64,000 nucleotides of DNA from Candidatus Bathyarchaeota archaeon. GTDB lineage: Archaea > Thermoproteota > Bathyarchaeia > TCS64. Shown in pieces: positions 3,654 to 56,312 of this stretch. The notes under the pieces were generated by a model. It saw only the letters and a list, made by a program, of their open reading frames with translations. It had not been told where the DNA came from and searched no databases. The DNA is taken from contig JBFYNP010000071.1 of NCBI GenBank assembly GCA_041304325.1, forward strand, positions 6,444 through 70,443, in the 5' to 3' direction. Every line of letters begins with the position of its first letter. Position 1 is the first letter of the stretch. Position numbers and translations under genes: made by a program.

Positions 3654-4427
3654 CTACAAGATCATAACAAACCTAGAAACAGGCACATACAACCTAACTA
3701 CACCAAACGCTAAAGGCTACATCTCTAGAGAAGCCATCCCGATTTCAGTGACCGCGGGCGTTGAAACGAAAAACATAAACATAGTTCTAGCTAAATCCGG
3801 AGTAATCACAGGGAAAATAACATCCACAGTGGGGGGTCAACCTCTTAAAGGCATCACTGTTTACGCTATGGGCGATAATGATGAAGGCTTGCACCGCCCA
3901 AACAGATGTGAACGGTAATTACCGCATAGACTCTGGACTAGGATCAGGAACATACACAATTAGAGCTATGTCAGGTATGAACTTTAACATGGTGCCAAAT
4001 ATCACCTTCACCGCGGGACAAGAAACATCGAACATCAACACAACTCTCACAGTAACCCCTCCAACACCCTCAGGAACTATAAAAGGCAGAGTAATCGATA
4101 TGAAAAATGAACCAGTTACTGGAGCCCAAGTTTCAGCATCCGGAACAGCTGGCTCAAAATCCGACACAACAGACAGCGACGGCTATTATGAGATCCTGAC
4201 GGCTTAGGAACAGGCACATACACCGTAAGCGTCACACGGTCGGGCTACGTTGACAAACAAAAAACGGGTGTCTCAGTCACAGTAGGAAGCATCACTTCTG
4301 GCGTGAACTTTCAACTACAGCTCTTACCAGCAGCGCAATCAGGCAAAATATACCCAGCTTCCCAGTCGAAGCAACAATCATTTCAATGCTAATAGTCATC
4401 ATATATCTTATAACCAGAAAACAATAA
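3637..4427 (+). pseudogene. 5'-truncated, multiply frameshifted remnant of a cell-surface protein built from CarboxypepD_reg-like beta-sandwich repeats with a C-terminal membrane anchor
   Basis: The same repeat type continues through frames 1, 2, 1 and 3. Frame 1 is 3637-3915 (TDSSGNYKIITNLETGTYNLT...GKITSTVGGQPLKGITVYAMGDN). Frame 2 is ORF 3878-4207 (TDVNGNYRIDSGLGSGTYTIRA...GRVIDMKNEPVTGAQVSASG...TDSDGYYEIL). Frame 1 resumes from 4201 (GLGTGTYTVSVTRSGYVDKQKTGVSV...VNFQLQ, stop 4390-4392). Frame 3 is 4350-4427 (IPSFPVEATIISMLIVIIYLITRKQ*). There is no start codon or signal peptide. Confidence 0.6.
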
Positions 4428-4586
4428 TCAAACACCCATCTTTACCTCAACACCGATTCTTTCTTATACATTCCAGAAGAGCACTCGAAAATAGACTTAA
4501 AATCATCTAGAAACTGTTAATTGAATTATACTCACAAACCATCCTTAAGAAAGGTGATCCGCCAACCAAAAACTAACAGGTCACTC

Positions 4587-4865
4587 TTAGGAGCCGTTCT
4601 TTAAAGCGAAATTCAGGATTTCCTTAAAAGCAAGTAAACCCAGAGTTTTCAGCATATTCTCATTTAGATACCAAACCCGATTATCATAGGTAACTAACCC
4701 AATTTTCCTAAGCCTCTTTAAAGCCCAAGAAATCTCATTGCTATCAAACATATAGATCGTCTTCTCTCTAATGTCCGTTATCGATACTTTACCGAACTTT
4801 AATAAACATTTGATAATATTTTCAAGTAAAAGAAGATCCTTATTCACTTCACTTCTGAAACCCAT
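4587..4865 (-). CDS. Small hypothetical protein, possibly winged-helix DNA-binding
   Basis: 92 aa. The stretch ISWALKRLRKIGLVTYDNRVWYL resembles a wHTH recognition helix plus wing. It lies in an AT-rich patch. No stronger evidence. Confidence 0.35.
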   Translation of the reverse strand: MGFRSEVNKDLLLLENIIKCLLKFGKVSITDIREKTIYMFDSNEISWALKRLRKIGLVTYDNRVWYLNENMLKTLGLLAFKEILNFALKNGS

Positions 4866-5131
4866 AGGTAACTAATCCTCCCAATTATACAAAACGACCT
4901 ATCGTTTTCATAATATATATCAGTTACCTTTCCGTCGAACACACGCCTTAAAATAAACCGGAAAAAATGTTTACTAGCACGCGAGTATAGCGTCAAAGTC
5001 GACAAAAAAATAATTATATTAACATATATTAAAACAAATTAATTAACTCTCAACAAGTGAGAGCGACCCAAGAAATATATATTACTATAGGTTACATTAT
5101 CATTTAGTCGACTCCAGAGGATTGCGAAACA

Positions 5132-5443
5132 ATGGAAAACTTCGTTAAAGGAAAGCTCAGTGCACGCGCAATAAAACTCGACGACATTACACCGGAATTA
5201 ATTAATCAAATACTAAATAGTCTAAACTTTGTTCAGAAGATATCACAAAAAATTTGGGGATATGTGTTTATCGATTACGTATTAATAGAGGGTTGGTCTG
5301 AGAAAACCCCCTTCTATTTATTCAGATGTGAGAAACATGGCTTAGAATTAGGTTACCCACACGGCCATGATATGAACCTTCTATGTCCCGATTGTCTAAA
5401 GGAAAAGTTAACAGAAATATCTAATAAAATTAAAGAAATCTAA
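5132..5443 (+). CDS. Small hypothetical protein with a C-terminal Cys/His cluster (possible zinc ribbon)
   Basis: 103 aa. FRCEKHG...GYPHGHDMNLLCPDCLKE gives C-x2-H ... C-x2-C spacing. It is convergent with the HerA-like ATPase. Confidence 0.35.
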   Translation: MENFVKGKLSARAIKLDDITPELINQILNSLNFVQKISQKIWGYVFIDYVLIEGWSEKTPFYLFRCEKHGLELGYPHGHDMNLLCPDCLKEKLTEISNKIKEI

Positions 5444-5455
5444 AAATGGGTTCTA

Positions 5456-31921: not shown

Positions 31922-32231
31922 AGGGCAAAGCACAGAATAAGCAAAAAACATTAATGATCGTAGCTTTTGTGAAAAGCTTTACGCCTTCACTTATCTGTAA
32001 GTAGCTTTCGAGGGTATTGTACAAACCGACCATATGTTCTGCAGACCTGATTAAATATAAGTCGGCTAGAACCTGAATTTCTGAATGTAGAGTGGAATAT
32101 AGGGATTCAATGTGTTAGCTTTGAACGTAAATTTGAAATGTATCCAAAATTTCGAAATATCAAGTAATTAAAACATCCATTATGTGTTCTAGACAATATA
32201 TGATGTTTAAGAGCTATCATTTATAGATAAG

Positions 32232-32852
32232 GTGATCTATTCAGGAAACATGCCAACGGTGATAGATGGCCCATTTATTCTCAGGATGGCAGTTATATTC
32301 GCAGTAACCACCGCGTTCTTCTATTTAATTCCGAGTGGATACGTTGAAGCTGCCACCGCAGTTTCTGGAGTATCTGCTCTAAGATTATTTGGCCACAACG
32401 CTTCTTGGTGGGTTGAAAACGGGGTCACATATCTCCAACTCGAAGGTGGAAACTCGGTTTTAGTCTCTATTATTCGGGAGTGTACAGCCCTTAACGTTTT
32501 TGGGATCATTACAGGGTTAATTCTACCGATTGCTGCTCCTTTCTGGAGGAGAATAATTGCCTCGCTTTCTGCTGGAGCTGCGCTTTTTATCTTAAACATT
32601 CCTAGAATAGCCTTAACGGTCTATCTAACCGCTTATGACACCTGGCCTTTCACTGTGCTTCCAGCGCTGAGTCTTGAGACTTATCATTACCCCATCAGTT
32701 TTTTGTTTGGTGTTTTTGGAGTAGCTTTGGTTGTACTCGGACTTACAAAATGGATAATTCCAGAGCTTGGTGACACCTTGATAGGTATTGTTGATTGGCT
32801 TAATTTGAAATTACGAGGAATAGTTTTCCCAGCTAAACTCATTGAATCTTAG
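32232..32852 (+). CDS. Small exosortase/archaeosortase-family membrane protein
   Basis: 206 aa, polytopic. The candidate catalytic Cys is in IIRECTALNVFGI, the Arg in LNIPRIALTVYL and the His in ETYHYPISFLFG. Order and spacing match the Cys-Arg-His pattern of the family. Confidence 0.55.
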   Translation: MIYSGNMPTVIDGPFILRMAVIFAVTTAFFYLIPSGYVEAATAVSGVSALRLFGHNASWWVENGVTYLQLEGGNSVLVSIIRECTALNVFGIITGLILPIAAPFWRRIIASLSAGAALFILNIPRIALTVYLTAYDTWPFTVLPALSLETYHYPISFLFGVFGVALVVLGLTKWIIPELGDTLIGIVDWLNLKLRGIVFPAKLIES

Positions 32853-32966
32853 AATATGAATAAATTTACTTGAGATCAGTTAATACCAAAATTGTTGTAA
32901 GATGACGTGTATTTTCCTTAAATTTCTGATCCTAATAGTTTTGAAAATGTGTACAAGATATTTTTA

Positions 32967-33485
32967 TTATAGGCCTTTAGCGGCTTCTATGAGTTTGGAT
33001 GCTTGATTCTCGGTGAACCCAGCTTTTCCTGCAAGACTCTCAGGTTTCTCTTTTGCAACCTGTTCCGCGTATTCGTAGCCAGCAGCCTTTAGTTTTTCAG
33101 CTGTTACAGCTCCGACCCCTGATATCTCGGTAATATCATGTTTGAGAGAGGTTTTTTCTTTACTCTTCTCAATTTTTGGTTTAGATATTTCAGCGGGTTG
33201 CGCGTTCTCAGGTCGTAGGTGTATCGCAACTGCGGAGACGTTTCTTTTTCCATTCTCTCCATCGAGTTCTTCGGTTCCTATCTCAACTATAGGTCGACCG
33301 ACTCCCGTGAGGAATTTATTTCGACAGACCTCGGCGACGTCAACTGCATTGCTTATAGCTCTTCCTCGGGCTTTCAATGTGATTCCCTCTGGAGAGGCGT
33401 TATAGGCGGTGATTACTGCGAGGACGTAGCTCATTGGGGGATTGCTTCCTATGTAAACGACGTTGTTACTGCTCATGTGCTTCAT
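32967..33485 (-). CDS. albA: Alba chromatin/RNA-binding protein fused to a C-terminal (HhH)2-like domain
   Basis: The Alba core is NVVYIGSNPPMSYVLAVI...ITLKARGRAISNAVDVAEV...NVSAVAIHL (about aa 8-100). A Lys-rich linker follows, then ITEISGVGAVTAEKLKAAGY and LAGKAGFTENQASKLIEAA helix-hairpin-helix motifs. Confidence 0.75.
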   Translation of the reverse strand: MKHMSSNNVVYIGSNPPMSYVLAVITAYNASPEGITLKARGRAISNAVDVAEVCRNKFLTGVGRPIVEIGTEELDGENGKRNVSAVAIHLRPENAQPAEISKPKIEKSKEKTSLKHDITEISGVGAVTAEKLKAAGYEYAEQVAKEKPESLAGKAGFTENQASKLIEAAKGL

Positions 33486-33816
33486 AAATAATTACAGGGG
33501 AGTCTATAAAAGAACTCCTCATGAAAGATTGTGTGGTCATGTTTTGTAGCTCTAGAATCGAATTATAGCAACTGAATTAAGAGCTGTGGATGTGTACTCA
33601 TCTGAAACTTTGAAAAACATAAAATTGAGAATGTATTAGAATTTAGATTGTGCCTAATTTTTCGTTATTCATATGTAACGCTTTTTACAGTTATGTTTCA
33701 GATTAATATTTTCTGAATTTGGATACACAGTTATTATAACAGCCCCTCCATCATTTTCAGCTACTTGAAAGACTATAACCATAAACTTTTAACACAATCT
33801 CTATAGGGAACAATCC

Positions 33817-34425
33817 ATGATTAAGAGAGAAATCATTTACTTTGAAGAAGGTGGTTCAGAGCATACGGACACAACTATAGATGCTTCAATAAAAGCTGCT
33901 AAGGAGTTTGGGATAGGTAAGATCGTTATCGCCTCTACAACTGGAGATTCTGGAGTAAAAGCAGCGGAAAAGGCGAAGGGTTCAGGTATCAAAGTCATAG
34001 TTGTTGGTCACCAGCACTGGTTTACCACGCCACCCCAAAAGTTCACGCCAGAAAATGCTGAAAAACTCATAGCTCTCGGTGCTGAGGTAAATATCGGTTC
34101 GGACGTTCTAACTAACAGTATTCGGCAGAAAGATCGTTTAGGAGCGAGTCCTCTTAGCATTATTACCCAGATTCTCAGTAGTCTAAAACTGAAGGTTAAT
34201 GTGGAGATTGTGCTTAAGGCGACTGATGCTGGGCTTCTTCAACCTGGAGAGAGAGTTATAAGTCTTGCTGGAAGCCATAGCGGGATTGACACTGCAGTGG
34301 TGCTTGTAGCGAATCAGACTGCGAATATTCTCGATATAAAACTTGACGAGATCATCGCTATCCCGCTTACACGAGAGAAAGCAGATGCTTCCTATATGCA
34401 GGCGAGGCAGCCTCCTAAACTTTAG
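33817..34425 (+). CDS. Pyruvate-kinase C-terminal (alpha/beta) domain-like protein
   Basis: IYFEEGGSEHTDTTIDASIKAAKEFGIGKIVIASTTGDSGVKAAE matches the stand-alone PK_C-like archaeal family pattern. Confidence 0.55.
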   Translation: MIKREIIYFEEGGSEHTDTTIDASIKAAKEFGIGKIVIASTTGDSGVKAAEKAKGSGIKVIVVGHQHWFTTPPQKFTPENAEKLIALGAEVNIGSDVLTNSIRQKDRLGASPLSIITQILSSLKLKVNVEIVLKATDAGLLQPGERVISLAGSHSGIDTAVVLVANQTANILDIKLDEIIAIPLTREKADASYMQARQPPKL

Positions 34426-38009: not shown

Positions 38010-39209
38010 TTATTCGATTGGACATGGCTGAGTTATACACTGCGCGCAAAGGCGTTCATGGTCGATATCAGACAAAGCGATTCTTGAGTCGATCCAGTAT
38101 AAACTTAAGGCAATAATGAGCAGGTCTAGGGTGAATCCTCCGTTTAGTAGTCTTGCACCTATGCGAAGTAGCGCTACACCTGCTACTAAGGCAATGTTGA
38201 GAGTTGCGTGGAGGCGAGGGTCATCAAAGTCGATGAGGTGCTGGATGATACCTGACGCTACTAGTAAAAAGCCGACCCAGAAGGTCTGCGTTACAAACCC
38301 CCATTCGTAAAAAGTTGCAATAAATGTGATAGAAATCGCTGCAATGGACCCGAGAGTTAAGCCCGCGCAGCCCGCGCATATTGAGCCTATTGGCGTTTTT
38401 AGAGTATGGCTATTATAGGTGGAGCAGGGGGGATGATGACCTATGAAACCTCTGGTGCTTTCTCCGAGTTTTCTCCCGGAGTTGTGAAGGAAGCGAAGTT
38501 TTTCAGGGTAGACCCCAGCGATGCCGCCAACAACGCAGATAAAGATGAAGACGGCGTCGGTTAGCCATTGAAACGCTGAGGGCTCGGAGGGGGAATAATA
38601 GGTTAGAAACGCTGTAGCCCAGAGGCCAAATAAGGAAATGGCTAGAATTGAGAAGCGCGGATCATTTTGAGAAACCTCCCTAAGCCACCTGTATATTTCC
38701 CTAAAGCGAGGGAGAATGAAAGGTGTTCTTTTTTTGTATTCTGTATATTCTGAGCCGAATCTTTTCGTGAGGTTTGGTTCTTCTCTGAGCTTTAATATAA
38801 TGAAGTTCAAAGCGATTACGATTATAGGTACGGTGATCGCCATCCCTGGTGATTGAAATAGGATGCCCATACCGAGAGGGAGGAGGCTATAGCCGAGAAC
38901 CATAGGGTTCTTGGTGTAAGAATAGAGCCCTGTGGTAACAAGTTTACTCGACGCGTCGTCTCGTAATGCCTCTCCCCAAGGGAGGCCTCCGCCGATTTGG
39001 TAAAGTAGCCGTGTAGCTTTGACTCCTACCGCTACCCCTGTGACTAGTATAGGTAGACCGATGAGAACGTTCAGAGGGAGTTTCGGTATTTGGGGGAAGC
39101 TGCAAACTGTGTCGATCCATTTACCGAAGAAATATGTGAGTATTGGCGCTATTATGAATATTGCAGCGTATCCTGTGAGGCGACTTCGTTTTATCCCGGG
39201 TTTCATCAC
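38010..39209 (-). CDS. Fusion membrane protein: N-terminal ICMT/PEMT-type membrane methyltransferase plus C-terminal DUF2085-like Cys-motif membrane domain
   Basis: The ICMT-type signature is LVTTGLYSYTKNPMVLGY...LREEPNLTKRFGSEYTEYKKRTPFILP. The C-terminal half has HHPPCSTY...GSICAGCAG followed by 4 TM segments, as in DUF2085. Confidence 0.5.
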   Translation of the reverse strand: MMKPGIKRSRLTGYAAIFIIAPILTYFFGKWIDTVCSFPQIPKLPLNVLIGLPILVTGVAVGVKATRLLYQIGGGLPWGEALRDDASSKLVTTGLYSYTKNPMVLGYSLLPLGMGILFQSPGMAITVPIIVIALNFIILKLREEPNLTKRFGSEYTEYKKRTPFILPRFREIYRWLREVSQNDPRFSILAISLFGLWATAFLTYYSPSEPSAFQWLTDAVFIFICVVGGIAGVYPEKLRFLHNSGRKLGESTRGFIGHHPPCSTYNSHTLKTPIGSICAGCAGLTLGSIAAISITFIATFYEWGFVTQTFWVGFLLVASGIIQHLIDFDDPRLHATLNIALVAGVALLRIGARLLNGGFTLDLLIIALSLYWIDSRIALSDIDHERLCAQCITQPCPIE

Positions 39210-39218
39210 TTGTTTCTC

Positions 39219-40643
39219 CTAGAAGAGGTTTCGAAGCCCTGTTGTGATGGCTTTTTGAGCCAGGTAAAGGTATGTTCGACGTGTGAAAGGGTTCTTGGAG
39301 CCGATTCCACGGTACCGCCGTGGCCAGCTCCCGAAGAAGTCATCATAGCAGCGGTGAACTTCCTCCTGAACTTGAAGTCGGGATAGATGCTCCGTAGGCA
39401 TCACAGCGTGGATCATGTCGTAGTTAGCCCAATTCTCGTCTTCTATCCAGCCGTTTTGCTTCGCCTCCAAGTATACTTCTGTTCCGGGGAAAGGAGTGAG
39501 AGCCATAAACGTCGCTATGTCCGGGTCAAGCCAGTCCGCGTACTTCCTGAGCGCCTCCACGGATTCCCTGCTGTCGCTTCGATGACCAATAATGAAGGTA
39601 CCCTGACTGAATATTTCGTTCTGTCGTAGGAGGTCCACAGCTTTTTTGGCAATATCTGGGTTCACGCCGTAGCGTCTGAAGCTATCTAGCACCTCCGGTG
39701 AAGGATTATCGAAGCCCACGAGCATCCAGACACACCCCGCTTCTCGAAGAAGCGGGAGAATATCGGCGTGAGCGACAATGTCGTCACAGCGTGCCTGACA
39801 GAACCATTGAACGTTGATAGCTCTCTCTTTTATTCCACGGCATATCTCCTCGGTTCTAGATCCGAGACTGAAATAATCGTCTGTAAACCAGAAAAAACGG
39901 CTCCCATACGTGCGATTAAGGTTTTCTATCTCATCTAGAATTAGCTTCGGCGATTTGACTCGCTGAGTCTGCCTCCAGAAGGGTGATTGGCTGCAATAGG
40001 CGCAATTATGGCTGCACCCACGGCTCCCCTCGATGATGGCGAATGGGGTTTCTTTCTCAGCCATCAATGCGAAGTAGTAGCCCTTCATGTGTCTCTCAAC
40101 AAGGTGATATGCGGGTGACGGTAACGTATCGAGGTCGCAGATTAAAGCCCCGTCAGGGTTATGAATTATTTCAGTTTGTTTGCGATACGTAATTCCAAGC
40201 ACTGAGATTGGGTCTCCCCTAGTTTTAAGGACATTGACAAGCTCTGTGAAAGTCACCTCACCCTCACCTCGCACGATGAAGTCAACTTCAGGGTAGCTTC
40301 GGAGAGTCTCTTCCGATAGGGCTGTGAAGTGCTGTCCACCGACCACTGTACATATTGACGGGTTGATCCTCTTTGCGAGTTGGCAAACACGAATAGCATG
40401 GAAAGCGTTCGCGGTACTGAGACCACTTGGGGCAACTATATCCGGAGCTGCTTTTACGATCCTGGCTTCGAGTCTAGTCCAATCGAGACCTTCAGATTGA
40501 CTATCAATAACCTCAACATCTATCTCAGGATTCTCCCGAAGAAGATATCCTGCGAGGGCTAGGACACCAAAAGGGGGAGGAATGTACTCACCCATTACGA
40601 ACCAGAAGTCCTTCGGAGGCTCAACGAATAGGACCTTCAACAC
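39219..40643 (-). CDS. Class B (B12-binding domain) radical SAM enzyme
   Basis: The N-terminal Rossmann/B12-like region is KVLFVEPP...APSGLSTANA...VVGGQH. The radical SAM cluster motif is GSRGCSHNCAYCSQ (CxxxCxxC). Confidence 0.85.
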   Translation of the reverse strand: MLKVLFVEPPKDFWFVMGEYIPPPFGVLALAGYLLRENPEIDVEVIDSQSEGLDWTRLEARIVKAAPDIVAPSGLSTANAFHAIRVCQLAKRINPSICTVVGGQHFTALSEETLRSYPEVDFIVRGEGEVTFTELVNVLKTRGDPISVLGITYRKQTEIIHNPDGALICDLDTLPSPAYHLVERHMKGYYFALMAEKETPFAIIEGSRGCSHNCAYCSQSPFWRQTQRVKSPKLILDEIENLNRTYGSRFFWFTDDYFSLGSRTEEICRGIKERAINVQWFCQARCDDIVAHADILPLLREAGCVWMLVGFDNPSPEVLDSFRRYGVNPDIAKKAVDLLRQNEIFSQGTFIIGHRSDSRESVEALRKYADWLDPDIATFMALTPFPGTEVYLEAKQNGWIEDENWANYDMIHAVMPTEHLSRLQVQEEVHRCYDDFFGSWPRRYRGIGSKNPFTRRTYLYLAQKAITTGLRNLF

Positions 40644-40798
40644 ATCTCATATGAGATCTAGCGTTTCAGGTTATCAAGATTCTCGCCGCGCGTGCGGAGA
40701 AGGCCGGGTGCAGCTAGTAGGTCCCAAGGAATGTTGTAGATGAGACGCTCGCACGAAGTTTAGATATCTTCTTAACTTGTAATAAAACATAGATAATA

Positions 40799-43105
40799 AT
40801 GCAGAATTTTATTTCTTTTACGAGAAACGAAAAATATTCTAAGATGCCGATGTATAAATCAAAATATGTTGTTGAATTATCAAAAACTAAGAAAAATTAT
40901 TCTGGAAACAAGGCTTGGAATCTTCATTTTTTAGAAAAAAATGGATTTAGAATTCCGTTAACTTATGTGCTTGAGCAGTACGTCTATGAAGATTATCTCA
41001 GAGAACCAAAAGGTACTATGCAGAAAATTGAGGAAGAAATTGACGATTTACTATCAATGAATAAGAAATATGCGCTTAGGTCCTCTACAAATATCGAGGA
41101 TTCTAGTGGTTACTCTTATGCTGGACAATTCTTAACTGTGCTTAACGTGAAAAATAAACCCGATATAATTAAATCCATAATTGATATTTGGAATTCTTCG
41201 AATCAGGGAAAAATAGTTGATTATAATAAAAATGTGAATAATATTAAAAGTTCTGTTAAATCCTCCGTCATTATTCAGGAAATGGTTGAATCCAAATTTT
41301 CCGGTGCAGTATTTACGAAAAACCCTATCACTGGTTTTGATGAAATAATTATTGAGTCAGTTAAAGGATTCGGAACTTCTCTGGTCCAGGATGGTTTGAC
41401 CCCTCAGAGATGGGTTAGAAAATGGGGAACTTGGAGAGAAAAACCTGATTTTCCTTTTATTGATGATAAAATACTGGTAGATATCGCTTTAGAGTCTAAA
41501 AAGATCCAGAAGAAATATGGTAAGCCTATCGATCTTGAGTGGGCTTTCGATGGAAAGAATCTGTTTTGGTTACAGCTTAGGGAAATTACTACCTTAAAAA
41601 AGATCAAACTATATTCTAATCGGATGGCTCGAGAAATGATCCCGGGTATCATTCTTCCTTTAGTTTGGTCAATTAATATTCCAACTATCTCTAGGGCTTG
41701 GAAAATTATCCTCAAAGATCTTTTTGGAGATTCCGTAAGTAATCTCAATTTTATGAATTTGGCTAAATCTTTCTACTGCAGAGCCTACTTTAATATGGGT
41801 CTCTTCGGTGATCTTTTTAGTATTCTTGGGATGCCCCGGGAATCACTTGAGCTAATGTTGGGTTTGGAAGTCATTGGAAGTGAGAAGCCGATGTTTTCTC
41901 CCTCCGCGAGGACCTTAAGGTATTTTCCTAGGATAATGTCTTTTTCATTTGGGATCACTTTACTACCTTACAGAATTAATAATTACATTGCCGAACATAA
42001 AAGATTTTTATATAAGATGCAAAAAATTGATTTAAATAAATTATGTTATTCAGATTCAATTAATTTGATAAATAGTATTATAGAGATGGGTGTTAAGTCG
42101 TCATATATCGTTGTTATTTCACAATTGATGCATTCTATGTTTCAGATGATGAGTAAAAGTAAAAAAATGTATGGTGTAAATTATTATGATAGTAACTTTA
42201 GGTTAAATGAGCTTAGCATAATATACTTAACATTGTCTCATGAAGAAAAACAGTGTTTAGAAAACTTAGCAACGCCGTCAGTTCACCCCCAAGGTGACTC
42301 ACTGCAGAAATTTATGAAAAAATATCATTTATTTTTAAGGGATTTTGGGCATTACAGCGAACATTCAAACGATATGTCTTACTTAACTTGGAGGGAAAAC
42401 CCGAATCAGATCATTGATTTAGTAAAAAACTATAACTCAACTATAAAATCAACTTTTCAGAACAGAAATTCTTCAAGTATCGTAGACATATATAAGCAAT
42501 ATAGAGAAAATGTGACTTATTTATACACGAAAAATTACAGTTATTTTAGACCAATTTTCCTCCATTTATCAAATATGTTTGTTAAAGAAAATATTTTGCA
42601 GGAGGTTAACGATATTTTCTATTTATCCTACGATGAAATAAAAGACGTTGTCAAGTATAAAGAAAGCGACCGAGTAAAATTTTTGGTTGAGAAAAGGAAA
42701 AAAGAGGTAGAATCAGTTAAGGGTATAGATCCTCCTGAGTTAATATTCAGCGATAAACAACCTCAAATAAGGGTTTTTTCTGAGAGACAGAAAACGCTTA
42801 AAGGTTTGGCTGTCTCGAGTGGAAAGTTTTATGGAACGGCTAGAATTGTGAAAACTATCGCAGAGGCTAATAATGTGTGTGAGGGAGATATCATCGTTAT
42901 ACCATACTCGGATGTTTCCTGGACTTCAATATTCACAAAAGTAGGAGGAATCATATCTGAATCTGGTGGGATGCTTTCACATAGCGCAATAATCGCCCGC
43001 GAGCTGAATATACCAGCTGTTGTAGCCGTAAGAAACGCCATGAAGATAGAAGAAGGGGCGACTTTGCTGCTTGATGGAGATCTAGGGGAAGTAATAATAG
43101 AGTAA
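40799..43105 (+). CDS. PEP-utilising-family phosphotransferase with rifampin-phosphotransferase-like architecture (ATP-grasp N domain, large central domain, C-terminal swivelling His domain)
   Basis: The N-terminal PPDK_N-like motifs are GNKAWNLHFLEKNGFRIP, ALRSSTNIEDSSGYSYAGQF, SVIIQEMV and IDLEWAF. The C-terminal mobile domain is GDIIVIPYSDVSWTSIF...GGIISESGGMLSHSAIIARELNIPAV. No PEP/pyruvate TIM-barrel domain follows. The gene is very AT-rich. Confidence 0.75.
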   Translation: MQNFISFTRNEKYSKMPMYKSKYVVELSKTKKNYSGNKAWNLHFLEKNGFRIPLTYVLEQYVYEDYLREPKGTMQKIEEEIDDLLSMNKKYALRSSTNIEDSSGYSYAGQFLTVLNVKNKPDIIKSIIDIWNSSNQGKIVDYNKNVNNIKSSVKSSVIIQEMVESKFSGAVFTKNPITGFDEIIIESVKGFGTSLVQDGLTPQRWVRKWGTWREKPDFPFIDDKILVDIALESKKIQKKYGKPIDLEWAFDGKNLFWLQLREITTLKKIKLYSNRMAREMIPGIILPLVWSINIPTISRAWKIILKDLFGDSVSNLNFMNLAKSFYCRAYFNMGLFGDLFSILGMPRESLELMLGLEVIGSEKPMFSPSARTLRYFPRIMSFSFGITLLPYRINNYIAEHKRFLYKMQKIDLNKLCYSDSINLINSIIEMGVKSSYIVVISQLMHSMFQMMSKSKKMYGVNYYDSNFRLNELSIIYLTLSHEEKQCLENLATPSVHPQGDSLQKFMKKYHLFLRDFGHYSEHSNDMSYLTWRENPNQIIDLVKNYNSTIKSTFQNRNSSSIVDIYKQYRENVTYLYTKNYSYFRPIFLHLSNMFVKENILQEVNDIFYLSYDEIKDVVKYKESDRVKFLVEKRKKEVESVKGIDPPELIFSDKQPQIRVFSERQKTLKGLAVSSGKFYGTARIVKTIAEANNVCEGDIIVIPYSDVSWTSIFTKVGGIISESGGMLSHSAIIARELNIPAVVAVRNAMKIEEGATLLLDGDLGEVIIE

Positions 43106-43759
43106 GTGATCAATATGAAAGTTTCACGTAGATTATGGGCTGTAATGATTGGCTATACACTATGGATGATTCTATTTACTATCGCATGCTCCCCGTTGGG
43201 ATTTAAACTACTAAAATATGAGGAAATGGGTTTCATCACAGATACAGCGTTTTTCGGGGCAATAATTGGATTATTCACAGCGATTTTGATAGGATTAGGT
43301 GAGTTACTGCCGATTCCACTTAGGAAAATGATGTACAAAGACGTCAAAACTACCCAACAATTCAAAGATATGTGGAAAGTCCAGATGATAGGTGGTTACG
43401 ATGGATTCATCGCTGAGCCACACTGGAGTGGAGCAATTCTACCATTATCATTGAAAATGCTAAATTCCTTCAATATTACTTATCCTTTGGCGATTATTCT
43501 TGCGATTATTATAAGATGGCTACTTCATTGTGTTTCGCATTATATGTTTCCAAGCGTAGAGCACGGTCATAGAGCATTCGGAGAAATGCTCTTCACAATG
43601 ATTGGATTGCTATTTTTTGATATAGTTCTTTCTGCAGCATTTTTAATCAGCGGTAACATCTTAGCCCCAATTATTATTCATACTTTTATGCAGCCGTTCG
43701 CAGAGCTATTTGGAGTAAAAAAGAAGTTAGCGAAAGAACTGGGAATAGAGTTAACATGA
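43106..43759 (+). CDS. Polytopic membrane protein, possibly a degenerate CPBP (CAAX protease / bacteriocin-immunity Abi) family member
   Basis: 217 aa with about 6 TM segments. AEPHWSG lies where CPBP has EExxxRG, WLLHCVSH where FxxxH is expected, and IIIHTFMQ where HxxxN/D is expected. It starts directly after the upstream stop codon. Confidence 0.35.
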   Translation: MINMKVSRRLWAVMIGYTLWMILFTIACSPLGFKLLKYEEMGFITDTAFFGAIIGLFTAILIGLGELLPIPLRKMMYKDVKTTQQFKDMWKVQMIGGYDGFIAEPHWSGAILPLSLKMLNSFNITYPLAIILAIIIRWLLHCVSHYMFPSVEHGHRAFGEMLFTMIGLLFFDIVLSAAFLISGNILAPIIIHTFMQPFAELFGVKKKLAKELGIELT

Positions 43760-43780
43760 CTTGAAGGAGGTGTCGCTGAC

Positions 43781-44485
43781 ATGAAAAATAGTCAAAATAG
43801 CGTGATAAAAACTGTGGATCTCCAAAAAATATATAGTCTCGGTAAGATCGATTTTCCAGCTCTCAAAGGAGTAAACATAGATATCAAGCAAGGAGAATTC
43901 GTTGCAATCGTCGGACCTTCAGGTAGCGGAAAATCGACACTTCTAAACCTTTTTGGAGCACTAGATAGACCGACTAAAGGAAGTGTCTTCATAGATGGTA
44001 TTGATATCTCAAAACTAGGTGAAAATGATCTAGCTGATGTTCGGAACAAGAAAATGGGGTTTGTTTTTCAGACATTCAACCTATTATTGTATCTTAACTC
44101 ACTTCAGAATATTGAGGTCCCACTCGTTGCAGCGAACATCCCTAGCCTAGAGAGGCTTAGGAAGGCTTCTGAAACCCTTGAGAGAGTTGGTCTAAAAGGA
44201 TATGAGAGAAATAGGCCTACCGAGTTAAGCGGAGGGCAACAGCAGAGAGTTGCCGTAGCAAGGGCTTTGGTTAATGATCCAAAAATAATCTTAGCTGATG
44301 AACCAACGGGTAATCTTGACTCAGAATCATCGAGAAATCTAATTGAGGTTTTTCATAAATTAAACTCGGAAAGCGGTGTAACTATAATCATGGTTACACA
44401 TAATTTGGATTTAACTAATTATTGTAACAGAGTGATAATGGTTAGAGATGGGTTAATCGAGAAGGAGGTATACAAAAATGCGTAA
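43781..44485 (+). CDS. ABC transporter ATP-binding protein, MacB/LolD-type
   Basis: Walker A is GPSGSGKST, the Q-loop FVFQTFNL, the signature [15 protein letters not shown], Walker [12 protein letters not shown] and the H-loop VTHN. Confidence 0.9.
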
Positions 44486-46136
44486 TAATACTGGGAATAT
44501 GCACAGGTATGAAAAAAATGGATGCAAAATGATTTTTATCATTTTTTATATATATTTGCTGTTAATTAGTTTTTATGGTATAAAACCGGTGAAAGCGGAA
44601 AATGAAGTGAAACTGGCTCTATCAACCGATACTCAGAATTTAATTCCAGGAAAAATTAACAATATAAAACTTACCTTAAAAAATAATGGTGATTTAGTTG
44701 CCAGATCCCTTACGGTCACGCTCAATATGCCTGCTACATCTCAGATTCAGGAATCGTTAATGTATGTGTTAAATGGGGATGGAACCCACTTTCTAGCCGA
44801 TCTCGATCCTGGGGAAAGCGTTGAAGTAGATGAAAGGATTTACGTTAATCCAAAAACTGCTAATAGTGTTGTATCAATACAGGTTAAGATGAGTTATTTA
44901 ATACCGGATGAAACTGTAGAATACAGAAACGTTGGTTTCACCATATCATCGTTGAGCTCTACAGGAGCCATAATAAATGTATCAACTTCAACGAGCACCC
45001 TAATAGCTGGCAATAGTAATCTTTTAGCTGTATACCTGAAAAACTCCGGTGACTCAATCGCTTATAATATAGACGTTACCATGGGACTCCCTGGAGTTGG
45101 AGGTTCTTCACCTTTAACACTCATCGATTCGGATGGTAACTGGCAACTTGAGTCAATAAAAGCGAACGCCTCAAATATTATCCCTCTCAAAATATTTGCT
45201 TCACCATCTTCTGCGGGGAACACGTATCTTATATCTCTCACGATCAGTTACAGTGATGACATTCGACAGTGGCAGATTACCAGATACATTTCAGTAGGTA
45301 TTCATTACCCTATTACCAAAGGTGCAATCCTAGATGTAACATTGAATGATCAAAACATTGCATCAGGATCCATCAACGATAGATCTTTAACCATATTTAA
45401 CTCTGGGGATGAAAAGGCGAGGAACATACTTTTCTCTCTGAGTACACCAAACACACAATCCTTCGCGATAATTGGGGCAGATAGATGGAGTATTGAAGGT
45501 ATAGAGCCTGGGCAATCTTTTAAAATCCCAGTTAAGTTCTTCGTAACCGCATACTCCAGCGGAATAACATACAGTATTCCAGCTTCTCTAACCTACATCG
45601 ATAACCTTTACAAGCAGAAACAGGAAAACATTGGAATAAGCGTAGTGATATTCGGAAATGTAGTAATCGATGTTTTAGAGTCCAGCACATATCCTTCAAC
45701 AGTGGTTCAAGGAAAGCCTTTCTCAATCACAGCAACGATAATCAACTTAGGTACAACCACAGCTCAGAGTGTTACGGTTCTACCGAAAGGTAACGCTGAT
45801 ATGCAGCCAAGTCAAAGCAGTACAATATTCATCGGAGACTTATCCACAAACGTCCCTTCCTCGATAACAATCACTTATGTAGCTTCAACCATCAAAAATG
45901 GGACGTATCCTGTGGAGGTGGAGTACAGTTACCGTTTAAACACTTCACAGAAATTTACTGGAAAAATTACTATACCAGTGAAGATCACGGCAACAAACAA
46001 GGTTATCCTGCCAATCGAAAACACGCCTCAAAGCCAGAGTCCCAGCATGCTTATGCTGTATGCACCATACGCAGTCATAATATTTCTACTCGTAATCATA
46101 GCATACATGTATGTTAAGAGAAGGGCCTTGAAGTGA
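44478..46136 (+). CDS. Secreted, C-terminally membrane-anchored protein with four tandem CARDB/COG1361-like beta-sandwich repeats
   Basis: There is an N-terminal hydrophobic signal. The repeat motif L.pG..n...l.l.N.Gd..A.n..v occurs four times about 120 aa apart (IPGKINNIKLTLKNNGDLVARSL; IAGNSNLLAVYLKNSGDSIAYNI; ASGSINDRSLTIFNSGDEKARNI; VQGKPFSITATIINLGTTTAQSV). The C-terminal TM plus KRR is APYAVIIFLLVIIAYMYVKRRALK. Confidence 0.55.
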   Translation: MRNNTGNMHRYEKNGCKMIFIIFYIYLLLISFYGIKPVKAENEVKLALSTDTQNLIPGKINNIKLTLKNNGDLVARSLTVTLNMPATSQIQESLMYVLNGDGTHFLADLDPGESVEVDERIYVNPKTANSVVSIQVKMSYLIPDETVEYRNVGFTISSLSSTGAIINVSTSTSTLIAGNSNLLAVYLKNSGDSIAYNIDVTMGLPGVGGSSPLTLIDSDGNWQLESIKANASNIIPLKIFASPSSAGNTYLISLTISYSDDIRQWQITRYISVGIHYPITKGAILDVTLNDQNIASGSINDRSLTIFNSGDEKARNILFSLSTPNTQSFAIIGADRWSIEGIEPGQSFKIPVKFFVTAYSSGITYSIPASLTYIDNLYKQKQENIGISVVIFGNVVIDVLESSTYPSTVVQGKPFSITATIINLGTTTAQSVTVLPKGNADMQPSQSSTIFIGDLSTNVPSSITITYVASTIKNGTYPVEVEYSYRLNTSQKFTGKITIPVKITATNKVILPIENTPQSQSPSMLMLYAPYAVIIFLLVIIAYMYVKRRALK

Positions 46137-47416
46137 GGAAATCTGATATCGTGATCTGGGGATTCAGAGGAATTCGTCAGAGGAAAACAAGGTCAGCTCT
46201 AACAATCCTAGGTATAATGATCGGGTCAGCTGCCCTCATCGCATTGATCTCACAGACACAGGGGATACAAGTTAGCATAGTCTCAGAAGTCAATAAGTTA
46301 GGTTCTAACACCATAACTATTAGACCTCAAACGAGTTCAGTGCTTCTGACACAGGGTGACATCAACAAGCTATCTCTGATACCGGGTATTCAATACGTAA
46401 TCCCCATCACTGCTACAAGCGTCAAAGTTTATGGAATAGGCTCAGCACGATCAATGAGCCTCATAGGGATCGACCAGTATTACCTGAATCTTCTCTTCCC
46501 TGAGCTAAAAATCGGTAAAGGGAGACCTTATGGAGATAATAGTTTTTCAGAGATTGTGGCTGGTAATAACGCCCAATATCCACAAGACCTCTCCTCGGCT
46601 TTCATGAATATTGACCAAGGCATAACACTTGAGCTCGGAGGACGCGAGCCTGTCCGAAAAGTTCTAACACTAGTTGGATCATTCAACACCTACGGGGCAT
46701 CAACCCTCTTCTCTGTAGATGATAATGTTTTCACATCAACACGTGGTGCACAAGCGCTGACAAACCGTCAATCATATAACATGGTTATCATTAAAACGAT
46801 TGACCCAACTAACATCGGCGATGTTGTAGCTAATATTAAGATTATGTATGGCACGAACCTGAACATTTTATCCATCAAACAGATAGCCCAAATCGCTACA
46901 GTAATTACAGGATACTTGGGAATGCTCATTGGTGTAGTTGCCGGGATCTCCCTACTCGTAGCTGGACTTGGAATAATGAATATAATGTTTGTCTCAGTTA
47001 TAGAGAGAACCAAGGAAATCGGGATCCTCAAAGCAGTCGGCTTTAAAAGCGGAGAAGTAATGGCGATCTTTCTATCAGAGGCATTCTTCCTAGGGATAAT
47101 AGGAGGGATCCTAGGTATAATTCTGGGGGGAAGCTTGTCCTACATCCTACCGTTCATATTATCCGGCACACAAAACAGCACACTTGAGACAATTGGGGAA
47201 GGAGGAGGATTCCAAATGAGCTCACAGGCGAACGCTGATGGAGGAACATTCTTCAACGTCGCCCAAATGAGCAACTTCTCATATCAACCAGTAATCAGCC
47301 TAGAGACCGTTTTACTGATTCTATTGTTCGCCATCGGCGTAAGCCTCTTCGCGGGCATCTACCCTGCTAGAAGAGCATCAAAAATGGATCCAATAGAAGC
47401 TCTAAGACATAATTAA
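46133..47416 (+). CDS. ABC transporter permease, FtsX/MacB-type (4 TM with a large extracytoplasmic domain)
   Basis: The N-terminus is RQRKTRSALTILGIMIGSAALIAL. The FtsX-domain motif is ERTKEIGILKAVGFKSGEV. The C-terminus is YPARRASKMDPIEALR. Confidence 0.85.
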   Translation: MRKSDIVIWGFRGIRQRKTRSALTILGIMIGSAALIALISQTQGIQVSIVSEVNKLGSNTITIRPQTSSVLLTQGDINKLSLIPGIQYVIPITATSVKVYGIGSARSMSLIGIDQYYLNLLFPELKIGKGRPYGDNSFSEIVAGNNAQYPQDLSSAFMNIDQGITLELGGREPVRKVLTLVGSFNTYGASTLFSVDDNVFTSTRGAQALTNRQSYNMVIIKTIDPTNIGDVVANIKIMYGTNLNILSIKQIAQIATVITGYLGMLIGVVAGISLLVAGLGIMNIMFVSVIERTKEIGILKAVGFKSGEVMAIFLSEAFFLGIIGGILGIILGGSLSYILPFILSGTQNSTLETIGEGGGFQMSSQANADGGTFFNVAQMSNFSYQPVISLETVLLILLFAIGVSLFAGIYPARRASKMDPIEALRHN

Positions 47417-47524
47417 AAAAGGGTAATTCATCTGCACCTCTGGTCTATTACCCCATGTGCATTTCATAGAAAATATTCCTAGACCCAAATTGTTTTTACA
47501 ATAAAACTTAATATTGTATTCAAG

Positions 47525-48742
47525 ATGTTTATGCAGAAAATCAGGTGGTTTTTGGTTTCCAGCCTCGCTTTGATGATTGGTTACCTCGTTGTTGAGTATT
47601 TGGTTCAAACACCCGCTCGACTTGGCCTATATGGAGCTTTACTTATGCTCTCTATAGGAGGAATGTTTTTAACGGTTTTAAAAAATTTTAAAAGAAAAGA
47701 ATTGCATCTTATTGGTCTAATAACAATTTTTAGTTTGTTTGCGGGGTATAGTATCGCTAACTATGTTTTCCTTTCCCAAGAAGAAATACGTATTTTACCG
47801 CAAATAAATCGCACTGATGGAGGAAATGGACACACCGCGATCATTTACTTTACCCACGGTGAACCCGCAGGTTATAGTGCTCTTCCTTGGATAGAAACCA
47901 TCCGTGAGTTAGATAGTGACAGTGTTCCCTTTGTCCCATGGCTTTTACGCCCCATTTTTTTCAATACAGTTCGAAATGAGTATTTTGAAGCTGGTGGTAG
48001 TGCCCATAATAAACTTCATCAAGTATATTTTGAAAATCTGAAGCGTTCTATGCCTGATGAAGAGGTAAAAGGAACAAAGTTTTACCTAGCGTTTCTTGAC
48101 AGTAACCCTAGGCCAGATGAAATGGCTATTAACGCCATTAATGATGGTGCTAGCAAAATAATCATCCTACCGGTCTTCATTACTGAATCAACTCATACTG
48201 AAGCAGGTAAAGAAATGGTGGCAAGCATTCACCCCGAGAAATACGGTATACAAGTTAGTTACACAGGCGCATTGTGGAGTTCAGATTCTCTTCAAAATGT
48301 TTTCGTTGAACGCGCAAACGAAATGGTCGTTAACATCAATCACTCCGAAGTAGGTATATTACTAGTAGGTCATGGACAGCCAACTGAATGGGAAACCCTC
48401 TATCCTGACCAGAACAAACAAGAAGATCAATATCGCAATGCGATACGAGAGAAATTAATCATGAATGGCTACAAACCAGAACACGTCGTTTTAGGTTGGA
48501 TGGAGTTTCAAAAACCAAGTATCACTGAAATAGTACATACTCTAGCTGAAAGAGGTGTGAAGAAGATCCTGGTCTTCGCTGTCAGCCTAAGCGCAGACTC
48601 AATTCACAGCGATGTAGAGATTCCTGCAGCTGTTTTAGAAGCGAAGTTACCAGATGATGTTTTGATCGAGTATATTGGTCAATACGGTGATCATCCCCTA
48701 GCGATTCAAGCAATGAAGGAAAAAATTACAAAAATATTATAA
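47525..48742 (+). CDS. Class II chelatase (ferrochelatase/CbiX-like) with an N-terminal three-TM membrane anchor
   Basis: About 90 aa of TM segments are followed by two chelatase-like halves. The first is TAIIYFTHGEP...IIILPVFITESTHTEAG. The second is GILLVGHGQPTEW...GWMEFQKPSITEIVHTLAERGVKKILVFAVSLSADSIHSDVEIP. These parallel ferrochelatase motifs as I recall them. Confidence 0.5.
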   Translation: MFMQKIRWFLVSSLALMIGYLVVEYLVQTPARLGLYGALLMLSIGGMFLTVLKNFKRKELHLIGLITIFSLFAGYSIANYVFLSQEEIRILPQINRTDGGNGHTAIIYFTHGEPAGYSALPWIETIRELDSDSVPFVPWLLRPIFFNTVRNEYFEAGGSAHNKLHQVYFENLKRSMPDEEVKGTKFYLAFLDSNPRPDEMAINAINDGASKIIILPVFITESTHTEAGKEMVASIHPEKYGIQVSYTGALWSSDSLQNVFVERANEMVVNINHSEVGILLVGHGQPTEWETLYPDQNKQEDQYRNAIREKLIMNGYKPEHVVLGWMEFQKPSITEIVHTLAERGVKKILVFAVSLSADSIHSDVEIPAAVLEAKLPDDVLIEYIGQYGDHPLAIQAMKEKITKIL

Positions 48743-56226: not shown

Positions 56227-56312
56227 TGGTGCGGGGAGAGGGATTCGAACCCTCGAAAGCCTAAGCTAGGGGATCTTGAGTCCCGCCCCTTTGGCCACTT
56301 GGGGACCCCCGC
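56227..56312 (-). tRNA. tRNA-Leu (anticodon CAA), class II with long variable arm and genome-encoded 3' CCA
   Basis: The reverse complement reads GCGGGGGTCCCCAAGTGGCCAAAGGGGCGGGACTCAAGATCCCCTAGCTTAGGCTTTCGAGGGTTCGAATCCCTCTCCCCGCACCA. It has a 7-bp acceptor stem (one G-U) and a T arm GAGGG/TTCGAAT/CCCTC. The anticodon loop is CU-CAA-GA and the variable arm is AGC-TTAG-GCT. Confidence 0.85.

Follow-up and report, generated by a model that had tools for sequence, protein, structure and literature searches.

In a stretch of 64,000 nucleotides of DNA from Candidatus Bathyarchaeota archaeon (contig JBFYNP010000071.1, positions 6,444 to 70,443; the window), positions 40799-48742 carry a block of six genes. 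They encode a dikinase of the rifampin phosphotransferase (RPH) superfamily, the orphan membrane protein TM217, an ATP-binding cassette (ABC) pump of the MacB type together with an immunoglobulin-like (Ig-like) repeat protein, and the chelatase-like protein Chel. In our estimate, there is about an even chance that this block is one horizontally acquired unit and a lineage-specific variant of a widespread, membrane-coupled small-molecule dikinase module. In relatives, the dikinase has a near-obligate partner derived from an acyl-phosphate-using transferase, which points to membrane-coupled phospho-activation. Every part of the block stems from a known superfamily; the combination is apparently undescribed. 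Full-text searches of the literature found no paper that links PlsY with RPH-like or phosphoenolpyruvate (PEP)-synthase-like enzymes or that describes the module, and a paper on heliorhodopsin gene neighbourhoods does not mention the module genes. The first-pass annotation of this DNA had proposed a five-gene archaeal system without a published description; the latter part stands, but the system is not specific to archaea, since the module is also present in bacteria.

Conservation of the dikinase and its membrane partner

Relatives of the dikinase were collected by a scan with an alignment of the enzyme, which covered one genome per GTDB species and returned at most 489 relatives in 185,579 species genomes, distributed over many phyla. 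The best 80 of the 489 relatives provided the loci for further analysis (17 archaeal and 63 bacterial, mostly Chloroflexota). All open reading frames (ORFs) of these loci were searched with hidden Markov models representing the proteins of the window and the partners that had been identified, and 88 enzyme loci were counted. A PlsY-like protein (PF02660) or TM217 is encoded within 2.5 kb of the enzyme in 73 of the 88 loci; the partner is fused or located within 300 bp in 59 of these 73, and 10 loci encode a single polypeptide with the PlsY domain N-terminal to the enzyme. The 15 loci without a PlsY-like or TM217 partner are mostly truncated contigs. Both the ATPase and the permease of a MacB-type pump lie within 5 kb of the enzyme in 27/88 loci, and a chelatase-like gene does so in 26/88. 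Unbiased clustering of the ORFs neighbouring the enzyme yielded the same top families (PlsY-like, 62 loci; ABC/FtsX, 46 loci; Chel, 29 loci).

The gene order differs between clades; at 33-40% identity, the enzyme is still found together with its membrane partner and frequently with a MacB pump. Different types of pump are found near the enzyme: a simple pair in Thor-/Lokiarchaeota, a system with an HlyD adaptor in six bacterial loci, and a trio with a CARDB protein in the clade of the window. In many Anaerolineae loci the permeases measure about 2.6 kb, and a duplicated MacB_PCD-FtsX arrangement was confirmed by Pfam in L088 only. Since varied pump architectures and gene orders occur beside the same enzyme, the linkage would be selected rather than simply inherited, and these sequence comparisons suggest clear selection on the combination in archaea as well as in bacteria.

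Closer to the window, the same five-gene order is present in six further Bathyarchaeia contigs (the P0001 contig, L001, L002, L008, L009 and L010) and consists of the enzyme, a 217-220-amino acid (aa) protein, the ATPase, a CARDB protein of about 555 aa and a 427-aa permease. Identity of the enzyme in these contigs ranges from about 55% at the low end to 81% in the P0001 contig, the closest relative, for which the gene table was used. Two expectations of the first-pass annotation are thereby borne out: its genes appear to form one unit, with the order kept down to 55% identity and the linkage kept across two domains of life where the order is shuffled, and the pair of enzyme and membrane partner recurs with a MacB pump in the six contigs. 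L009 and L010 belong to one Bathyarchaeia metagenome-assembled genome (CAZIKD01), which thus holds two TM217-type module copies on different contigs; these may be paralogues or reflect strain heterogeneity.

Active site of the PlsY-like partners

PlsY holds its acyl-phosphate in a 'phosphate hole', to which His92 and backbone atoms of the loop Lys104-Ala107 contribute, and its glycerol-3-phosphate (G3P) site comprises Ser35, Arg45, Lys104 and Asn180, plus Ser142 and His177; the exchange R45K results in the loss of more than 90% of the activity, and His177 is irreplaceable (Li et al., PMC5700162). The 92 unique PlsY-like proteins of the module were aligned with PlsY of E. coli and Aquifex. In the phosphate hole, Gly102 is kept in 92/92 sequences, Gly105 in 91/92, Gly103 in 90/92 and His92 in 76/92. 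In the G3P pocket, by contrast, Arg45, His177 and Asn180 are each kept in 0/92, with Glu or Asp at the position of His177 in 77 sequences, and Ser35 is kept in 23/92. The PlsY-like partners match PDB entry 5xj5 (E 1e-12) and reach 65-71 bits against the PlsY equivalog TIGR00023, whose cut-off is 137. Judged by this alignment, they keep the donor half-site for a phosphate ester or anhydride and have lost the G3P acceptor site, which would fit a partner that takes a phospho-intermediate from the dikinase and passes the group to another acceptor.

The arrangement resembles FakA/FakB or PlsX acting together with PlsY, in which a cytoplasmic, ATP-dependent phosphorylating enzyme is likewise combined with a PlsY-family membrane protein (PMC5700162, PMC9136124). 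However, the module kinase is unrelated to FakA, the module partners are devoid of Arg45, His177 and Asn180, so that a G3P acceptor cannot bind as in PlsY, and in the window TM217, which is unrelated to PlsY, stands in for the PlsY-like partner.

PlsY homologs of Loki- and Thorarchaeota have been counted as potential ester-lipid acyltransferases (PMC6737245). The Asgard PlsY (PF02660) homologs found here all adjoin or are fused to the dikinase, usually together with a MacB-type ABC pair (L005, L006, L013, L020, L021, L023 and L024; Thor-/Lokiarchaeota and Promethearchaeota), and the PlsY-like genes of the Thor-/Loki-lineage (L006, L013, L020, L021, L023 and L024) are part of the module and lack the G3P pocket. 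On the assumption that these are the same genes as in the published survey, bacterial-type ester-lipid inferences from Asgard 'plsY' (PMC6737245) may need revisiting.

Structure and predicted function of the dikinase

The N-terminus of the enzyme matches PPDK_N (PF01326; E 7e-35, 121 bits vs. a cut-off of 27), and its C-terminus matches the mobile domain of PEP-utilizers (PF00391; E 2e-21). The protein ends at this swivel domain, and a Pfam search of the enzyme gave no match to the TIM barrel domain PEP-utilizers_C. In an alignment of 18 homologs, His728 of the swivel motif SESGGMLSH is invariant, and so are the motifs GNKA, RSSxxxED, QEM and DLEW. The enzyme scores 168 bits against PEP synthase (TIGR01418, cut-off 740) and 43 bits against pyruvate phosphate dikinase (PPDK; TIGR01828, cut-off 843); these scores and the missing TIM barrel led us to reject an identity as PEP synthase or PPDK. 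NCBIfam models for 'PEP synthase' (PRK06241; 240 bits vs. 972) and PigC (213 vs. 1300) also stay below their cut-offs. The same holds true for the RPH equivalogs NF041857 (212 vs. 999) and NF000283 (151 vs. 1700), and the enzyme is therefore not classed as an orthologue of RPH proper.

By sequence, the closest solved relatives are rifampin phosphotransferase entries of Listeria (E 6e-45), which align via the ATP-grasp and C-terminal parts. An AlphaFold2 (AF2) model of the enzyme was built from 18 homologs (predicted local distance difference test score, pLDDT, 80; predicted template modelling score, pTM, 0.72). When this model was compared with the PDB using Foldseek, the top six matches were Listeria RPH (including 5hv1 and 5fbs; E 3e-37 to 1e-25) over about 900 columns, whereas PEP synthase (E 8e-11) and PPDK (E 8e-10) matched through the ATP-grasp and swivel parts only. 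Global TM-scores are 0.33-0.43, low as expected for a swivelling multidomain enzyme. The Pfam domain Rph_4th is present among the precomputed annotations of enzyme homologs. Because of the full-length structural alignment to RPH and the Rph_4th domain of the homologs, the central part of about 400 residues is predicted to be an RPH-type helical substrate domain and not a PEP-synthase domain. The first-pass annotation had left this part unassigned and had named a conventional PEP-synthase or PPDK substrate domain as the outcome that would speak against it; the match to RPH is by far the stronger one, and the RPH-like layout without a TIM barrel that it had described is upheld. The central domain contains many residues that are invariant across archaea and bacteria, which suggests one common substrate rather than diverse drugs.

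In the superfamily, which includes RPH, HpeHI, CreHI and the phenylphosphate synthase PpsAB and is characterised by the motif T/SxxGGxxxH, a histidine of the swivel domain ferries phosphate from the ATP-grasp site to the second substrate site (PMC12167813). With these enzymes and with PigC/RedH, the window's enzyme shares the ATP-grasp domain, the helical substrate domain, the swivelling phosphohistidine domain, the lack of a TIM barrel and the superfamily motif, in which position -2 is not Thr. It differs from RPH in that it is only about 20% identical, lies below every curated equivalog cut-off and forms its own subfamily with conserved motifs in the central domain. To our knowledge, the characterised members of the superfamily are neither adjacent to nor fused with an integral membrane protein, whereas this enzyme almost always is.

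TM217, an orphan membrane partner

The 217-aa protein TM217 has about six transmembrane (TM) helices (AF2 pLDDT 87, pTM 0.85) and contains the residues D99, E104, R137, W138, H141, H145, D172 and H192, which are invariant in the family alignment. The family is rare: an exhaustive HMMER profile search of 1.84 billion proteins retrieved 18 representatives in total at E <1e-3. In the first-pass annotation the protein had been termed CPBP-like; it was the only one of five family assignments that fell below the curated Pfam threshold, with 21.4 bits against the Rce1-like family PF02517 (gathering cut-off 22.4), and the other four lie above theirs. Matches to the Rce1-like family are weak in 6/12 members of the TM217 family (best E 3e-4). 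The best PDB match of the TM217 model is Rce1 (4cad), which is non-significant (E 0.36, probability 0.54, TM-score 0.33). CPBP proteins carry the canonical catalytic motifs EExxxR, FxxxH and HxxxN/D. The motifs of the TM217 family are IAEPHWSG (one Glu, Arg missing), RWxxHxxxH and HTFMQ. They include an E...H...H pattern, but the canonical motifs, among them EExxxR and HxxxN/D, do not occur as such in the family alignment. Thus, TM217 resembles the CPBP/Rce1 proteases, which include Abi immunity proteins, in being small and polytopic, in its conserved Glu and His residues and in its top, non-significant structural match, but its profile search reached 18 proteins instead of the large numbers expected for the CPBP family. 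On these grounds an identity as a bona fide CPBP protein is not supported, and TM217 is treated as an orphan family, for which the CPBP-like label remains a weak lead. A diverged PlsY was rejected (hhalign probability of 0.1% against the PlsY-like partners), and a profile search of the PDB with TM217 gave just a spurious match to ATP synthase subunit a (E 0.018). From the positive-inside rule we infer that most of the invariant polar residues lie toward the cytoplasmic half of the helices and would face the side of the enzyme.

TM217 takes the place of PlsY in the clade of the window only; elsewhere, the partner is PlsY-like. In a neighbour-joining tree of the enzyme (unrooted, no bootstrap), the TM217 clade nests among archaeal clades that possess PlsY and ABC genes, and TM217 appears to have replaced the PlsY-like partner in this clade. 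Distant relatives of TM217 (37-38% identity; L088-L090) do not adjoin an RPH-like enzyme but a protein resembling TiaS_TCKD and methanogenesis marker 11 (Pfam E 1e-11; NCBIfam E 3e-42, below cut-off). A surface protein that is rich in Ser/Thr and anchored at its C-terminus is encoded at these loci as well, next to a divergent ABC system of the MacB type. The protein adjoining TM217 there is unrelated to the dikinase; its kinase-type fold activates a carbonyl by phosphorylation in TiaS, and by analogy the distant loci may represent the same design with a different activating enzyme.

The MacB-type pump and its Ig-repeat protein

The ATPase matches ABC_tran (Pfam E 2e-34) and the NCBIfam models for LolD (238 bits) and for MacB, in its N-terminal half (222 bits). 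In the permease, TM1 is followed by the MacB periplasmic core domain (MacB_PCD, PF12704, E 4e-17) and by the FtsX bundle of three TM helices (PF02687, E 8e-21). Its closest solved structures are those of MacB (5gko and 5lil, E about 1e-22), which agrees with the earlier assignment to a MacB-type pump; YtrF and LolCE were also matched. HrtB was not among the PDB matches, and a HrtB-like haem pump was rejected as the identity of the permease.

The 552-aa protein encoded between both begins with a signal sequence and is anchored by a C-terminal TM segment, which is followed by KRR. Three of the four repeats described in the first-pass annotation correspond to Ig-like domains in Pfam (49-126, 297-378 and 401-481); for the fourth, weak self-similarity is the support. 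No MacA/HlyD adaptor is encoded in the window, and the CARDB/NEW3 repeat protein sits in that slot; an HlyD adaptor occupies the corresponding position in the six bacterial loci mentioned above. In Methanomethylicia and in one more archaeon, the genes for homologs of the CARDB protein (36% identity) are flanked by those for an ATPase and an FtsX permease, and no enzyme, TM217 or Chel gene is found near these loci. Since the CARDB homologs occur in such trios without the remaining components, the ATPase-CARDB-permease trio is a generic archaeal MacB-type unit that was recruited here. Like the type VII (mechanotransmission) transporters of the MacAB type, the pump consists of a separate LolD/MacB-like ATPase and a permease with TM1, periplasmic core and FtsX bundle. 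It differs from MacAB in that it has neither a MacA/HlyD adaptor nor an outer membrane and that a gene for an anchored Ig-repeat protein is located between those for ATPase and permease.

Chel, the sixth member of the block

Chel scores above the Pfam cut-offs for CbiX (E 6e-16, 59 bits vs. 22) and Ferrochelatase (E 2e-14, 54 bits vs. 27) and below every NCBIfam equivalog cut-off. Three N-terminal TM helices precede a class II chelatase-like domain of the CbiX/ferrochelatase fold, which, based on the charge distribution around the TM helices, is probably facing outward. The protein is very strongly conserved across archaea and bacteria. The histidines H111, H224 and H283 (motifs THGEP, SxHT and GHGQP) are invariant across 26 sequences, H361 of the motif IHS is invariant in a 7-sequence alignment, and both CbiX-like halves keep His motifs. 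The region of H361 aligns to the His-containing motif 'HGIH' of the solved sirohydrochlorin cobaltochelatase 6m2a. Chel therefore shares the Pfam families and the HG-type His motifs in both halves with class II chelatases such as CbiX, CfbA and HemH; however, it possesses N-terminal TM helices and a probable extracytoplasmic orientation, lies below the equivalog models of these enzymes, and has the dikinase, PlsY-like proteins and the MacB pump as conserved partners instead of tetrapyrrole biosynthesis genes.

Chel adjoins the block in 6/7 contigs of the TM217 clade, including the window, and its position and strand vary. A reciprocal census of 80 metagenome loci centred on Chel found the enzyme in 27/80 and a PlsY-like protein in 30/80; where the flanks on both sides were adequate, 9/18 loci carry both. 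In this unbiased census, the families that recur most often are PlsY-like proteins, the enzyme, ABC and FtsX, and no other family recurs around Chel in the 80 loci. Likewise, tetrapyrrole biosynthesis genes are not recurrent in the unbiased neighbour censuses around the enzyme or Chel.

Some further genes recur near the enzyme. Heliorhodopsin genes are located within about 4 kb upstream on the same strand in five loci of archaea and bacteria, and Staygreen genes (Mg-dechelatase family) lie within 1.6 kb in three loci of two lineages; both are light- or pigment-related (L001:5315-6749, L009, L026, L050, L068 and L080). In one group of eight Anaerolineae loci (L041, L047, L057, L069, L077, L083, L085 and L087), the enzyme gene shares its strand with a gene for a Ni/Co permease of the HupE/UreJ family (E 3e-50) and one for a membrane protein with DUF6512; most of these genes lie directly upstream of it, and those of L041 and L069 lie downstream.

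Organisation and composition of the locus

The five ORFs that had been placed co-directionally on the forward strand by the first-pass annotation are present at these positions (Table 1). It had let the membrane protein start directly after the enzyme's stop codon TAA; the homologs and the database gene call begin with MKVS at the ATG, 9 nt past this codon, which makes the ATG the likely start and the abutting GTG the less likely one. Reading of the junctions confirmed the 21-nt spacer between the TM217 and ATPase genes, the 8-nt overlap between the genes for ATPase and Ig-repeat protein and the 4-nt overlap of the latter with the permease gene. Permease and Chel genes are separated by 108 nt that contain an oligo-T tract. 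Upstream of the enzyme gene, the TATA-like sequence TTTAGATA is situated in an AT-rich stretch at about 40759-40766, and the intergenic region is a putative archaeal promoter of this gene. A sigma-70 promoter/terminator scan gave 30 sites vs. 26.6 expected and is uninformative for an archaeon.

Table 1. Features of the dikinase locus and of the distant TM217 loci
Feature	Position	Strand	Basis or context
RPH-superfamily dikinase gene, 768 aa	40799-43105 (stop TAA 43103-43105)	+	ORF and Pfam
TM217, orphan membrane protein	43115-43759 (ORF opens at GTG 43106; likely start ATG 43115)	+	Homolog alignment
Ribosome-binding site GGAGGTG, upstream of ATPase ATG at 43781	43766-43772	+	Direct sequence reading
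LolD/MacB-type ABC ATPase	43781-44485	+	Pfam, NCBIfam
552-aa extracytoplasmic Ig-like (CARDB/NEW3/DUF11) repeat protein	44478-46136	+	Pfam, repeat test
MacB-type permease	46133-47416	+	Pfam, PDB matches
Chel, 405-aa class II chelatase-like protein, sixth block member	47525-48742	+	Pfam, GC content at third codon positions (GC3), synteny
Intergenic region between enzyme gene and divergent radical SAM gene; putative promoter	40644-40798	+	Direct sequence reading
B12-binding radical SAM gene	39219-40643	-	Divergent neighbour of enzyme gene
Distant TM217 module	L088:4787-7669, L089:3965-6910, L090:41-1950		Beside duplicated-FtsX MacB permease and ATPase

GC3 amounts to 0.33-0.44 in exactly the six genes of the block and to 0.45-0.53 in every flanking gene of the window. 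With a GC3 of 0.34, Chel falls within the low range of the block, and from this low-GC3 island the unit is therefore taken to comprise six genes, which look horizontally acquired. The first-pass annotation had ended the unit with the permease and had missed Chel, which shares the low GC3 and the synteny. Two further stretches of low GC, at window positions 4001-6000 and 32001-34000 (0.39, compared with 0.45 on average in the window), might likewise have been acquired. The sole RNA gene detected in the window by tRNA and Rfam scans, tRNA-Leu(CAA) at 56227-56312 (-), is located far from the block.

The divergent neighbour of the enzyme gene encodes a B12-binding radical S-adenosylmethionine (SAM) protein with BchE as best NCBIfam match (248 bits vs. 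a cut-off of 481) and a GC3 of 0.53. Five loci of Anaerolineae have similar genes no more than 5 kb away from the enzyme. The gene was considered as a seventh component and rejected: it shares 26% identity with the Anaerolineae copies, has counterparts in 0/80 Chel-anchored loci, lies beyond the GC3 island and is not kept in the 81%-identical contig. It is thus probably outside the unit. Next to it, 38010-39209 (-) encodes a polytopic protein of 399 aa, in which a methyltransferase domain of the PEMT/ICMT type (E 6e-11) is fused to a membrane region that is rich in Cys and forms the C-terminal part. The occurrence of an ICMT-like gene at a distance of about 4 kb from the weakly Rce1-like TM217 recalls CAAX processing; the pairing is not kept in the 81%-identical contig. 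An anti-phage defence system was also considered and rejected, as PADLOC returned just generic similarities to ABC ATPases and LolE-TM and no match to a system-specific model.

Proposed mechanism and alternative explanations

Starting from what was observed, namely which genes are present and conserved, which domains they encode and how the active sites of the PlsY-like partners compare with PlsY, the following order of reactions, topology and kind of substrate can be proposed. The cytoplasmic enzyme would transfer phosphate from ATP to His728 and then onto a lipophilic substrate bound in the central domain, thereby producing AMP, Pi and the phospho-substrate, as expected from the chemistry of the family. 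At the cytoplasmic face, the membrane partner, TM217 here and a PlsY-derived protein in most relatives, would bind the phospho-intermediate and process it, either hydrolysing it or passing a group on to an acceptor in the membrane. The ATPase and permease of the MacB type would then expel or extract the substrate or product at the outer face, where the anchored Ig-repeat protein may serve as an adaptor-like third subunit and where the chelatase-like domain is probably also located. Our best guess for the intermediate is an acyl-phosphate-like species formed on a carboxylate or hydroxyl of a lipid-like or otherwise hydrophobic molecule. In the best-supported reading, the pump and the outward-facing Chel act downstream in a subset of lineages, among them that of the window.

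Some observations weigh against this proposal. Pump and Chel accompany the enzyme in 27/88 and 26/88 loci and are accessory to the core of enzyme and partner, and as the trio also occurs alone, the coupling to the pump may be loose. No catalytic fold could be assigned to TM217, which may thus act as a scaffold or gate the substrate instead of catalysing a reaction. For both Chel and TM217, the topology is derived only from the positive-inside rule and the AF2 helices, and the replacement of PlsY by TM217 only from the unrooted neighbour-joining tree without bootstrap values. The loosest arrangement, in which enzyme and TM217 form one unit and the trio and Chel are independent neighbours on a mobile segment, would agree with the trios found alone in Methanomethylicia and another archaeon, with Chel often standing alone and with the 108-nt gap and its oligo-T tract. 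We nevertheless regard it as very improbable: the ATPase gene begins 21 nt past TM217 and has a separate ribosome-binding site, the genes overlap at the two junctions that follow, structurally different MacB systems lie beside the enzyme in several clades of archaea and bacteria, TM217 relatives without the enzyme still adjoin a MacB pump, and Chel, although its position shifts, stays within the block in 6/7 contigs of the clade.

The block could also be a resistance island against antibiotics or xenobiotics, in which the dikinase inactivates a toxic hydrophobic molecule, the MacB pump exports the drug or its phospho-form and TM217 has an immunity or accessory function. RPH is indeed the closest solved homolog of the enzyme and the MacB macrolide exporters are those of the permease, the block is a compositional island, and the patchy distribution (at most 489 hits in 185,579 species genomes of many phyla) resembles that of horizontally transferred genes. 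This explanation seems unlikely to us, as the enzyme reaches 212 bits vs. an RPH equivalog cut-off of 999, its conserved central domain suggests one substrate, and a near-obligate, sometimes fused membrane partner has no role in known RPH-type resistance; moreover, the pump is present in just about a third of the loci, and the conserved chelatase-like partner would be left unexplained. Nothing specific was found in support of the idea of the first-pass annotation that a toxin is inactivated and then exported, which is possible and not favoured. If, on the other hand, Chel is given most weight, the module might modify, metallate or demetallate a porphyrin- or chlorin-type molecule and then extrude it, with a propionate carboxylate activated as acyl phosphate, for example, Chel as a chelatase and the pump resembling HrtBA, a MacB-type pump that extrudes haem. 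The Pfam scores of Chel, the His pairs in both halves, its sole recurrent neighbours (the enzyme, PlsY-like proteins and ABC/FtsX) and the minor recurrent neighbours HupE/UreJ (8 loci), Staygreen (3) and heliorhodopsin (5) would be in line with such a role. It appears quite improbable, however, since Chel is found at about 30% of the enzyme loci and half of the well-flanked Chel loci do not contain the enzyme, tetrapyrrole biosynthesis genes do not recur, the PDB matches of the permease were MacB, YtrF and LolCE and not HrtB, and the BchE-like radical SAM neighbour, which does not belong to the island, shows only 26% identity from locus to locus.

Implications

Taken beyond the window, the proposed membrane-coupled dikinase module could belong to an unrecognised, widespread membrane pathway of Asgard archaea, Bathyarchaeia, Chloroflexota and further lineages that are mostly uncultured, in which the dikinase makes an acyl-phosphate-like, lipophilic intermediate, a PlsY-derived or TM217 transferase that does not use G3P as acceptor takes over this intermediate directly, and a MacB pump and an outward-facing Chel finish the process; we put this forward as a tentative possibility. 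If true, the 'PlsY' genes of Loki- and Thorarchaeota that are cited for bacterial-type ester lipids would be parts of the module and not G3P acyltransferases. The PlsY result thereby bears on the debate about the 'lipid divide', in which the Asgard homologs have been interpreted as candidates for the synthesis of bacterial-type lipids (PMC6737245). The module would further add a new, membrane-coupled branch to the small-molecule dikinases, a family so far associated with antibiotic inactivation, phenol catabolism and prodiginine synthesis, and the anchored Ig-repeat protein, whose gene is placed between those of ATPase and permease, may be an archaeal solution to the adaptor problem of MacB-type pumps. 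Finally, it would provide the first functional context for three orphan or mis-annotated families, namely TM217, the membrane-anchored chelatase-like protein and the PlsY subfamily without a G3P pocket.

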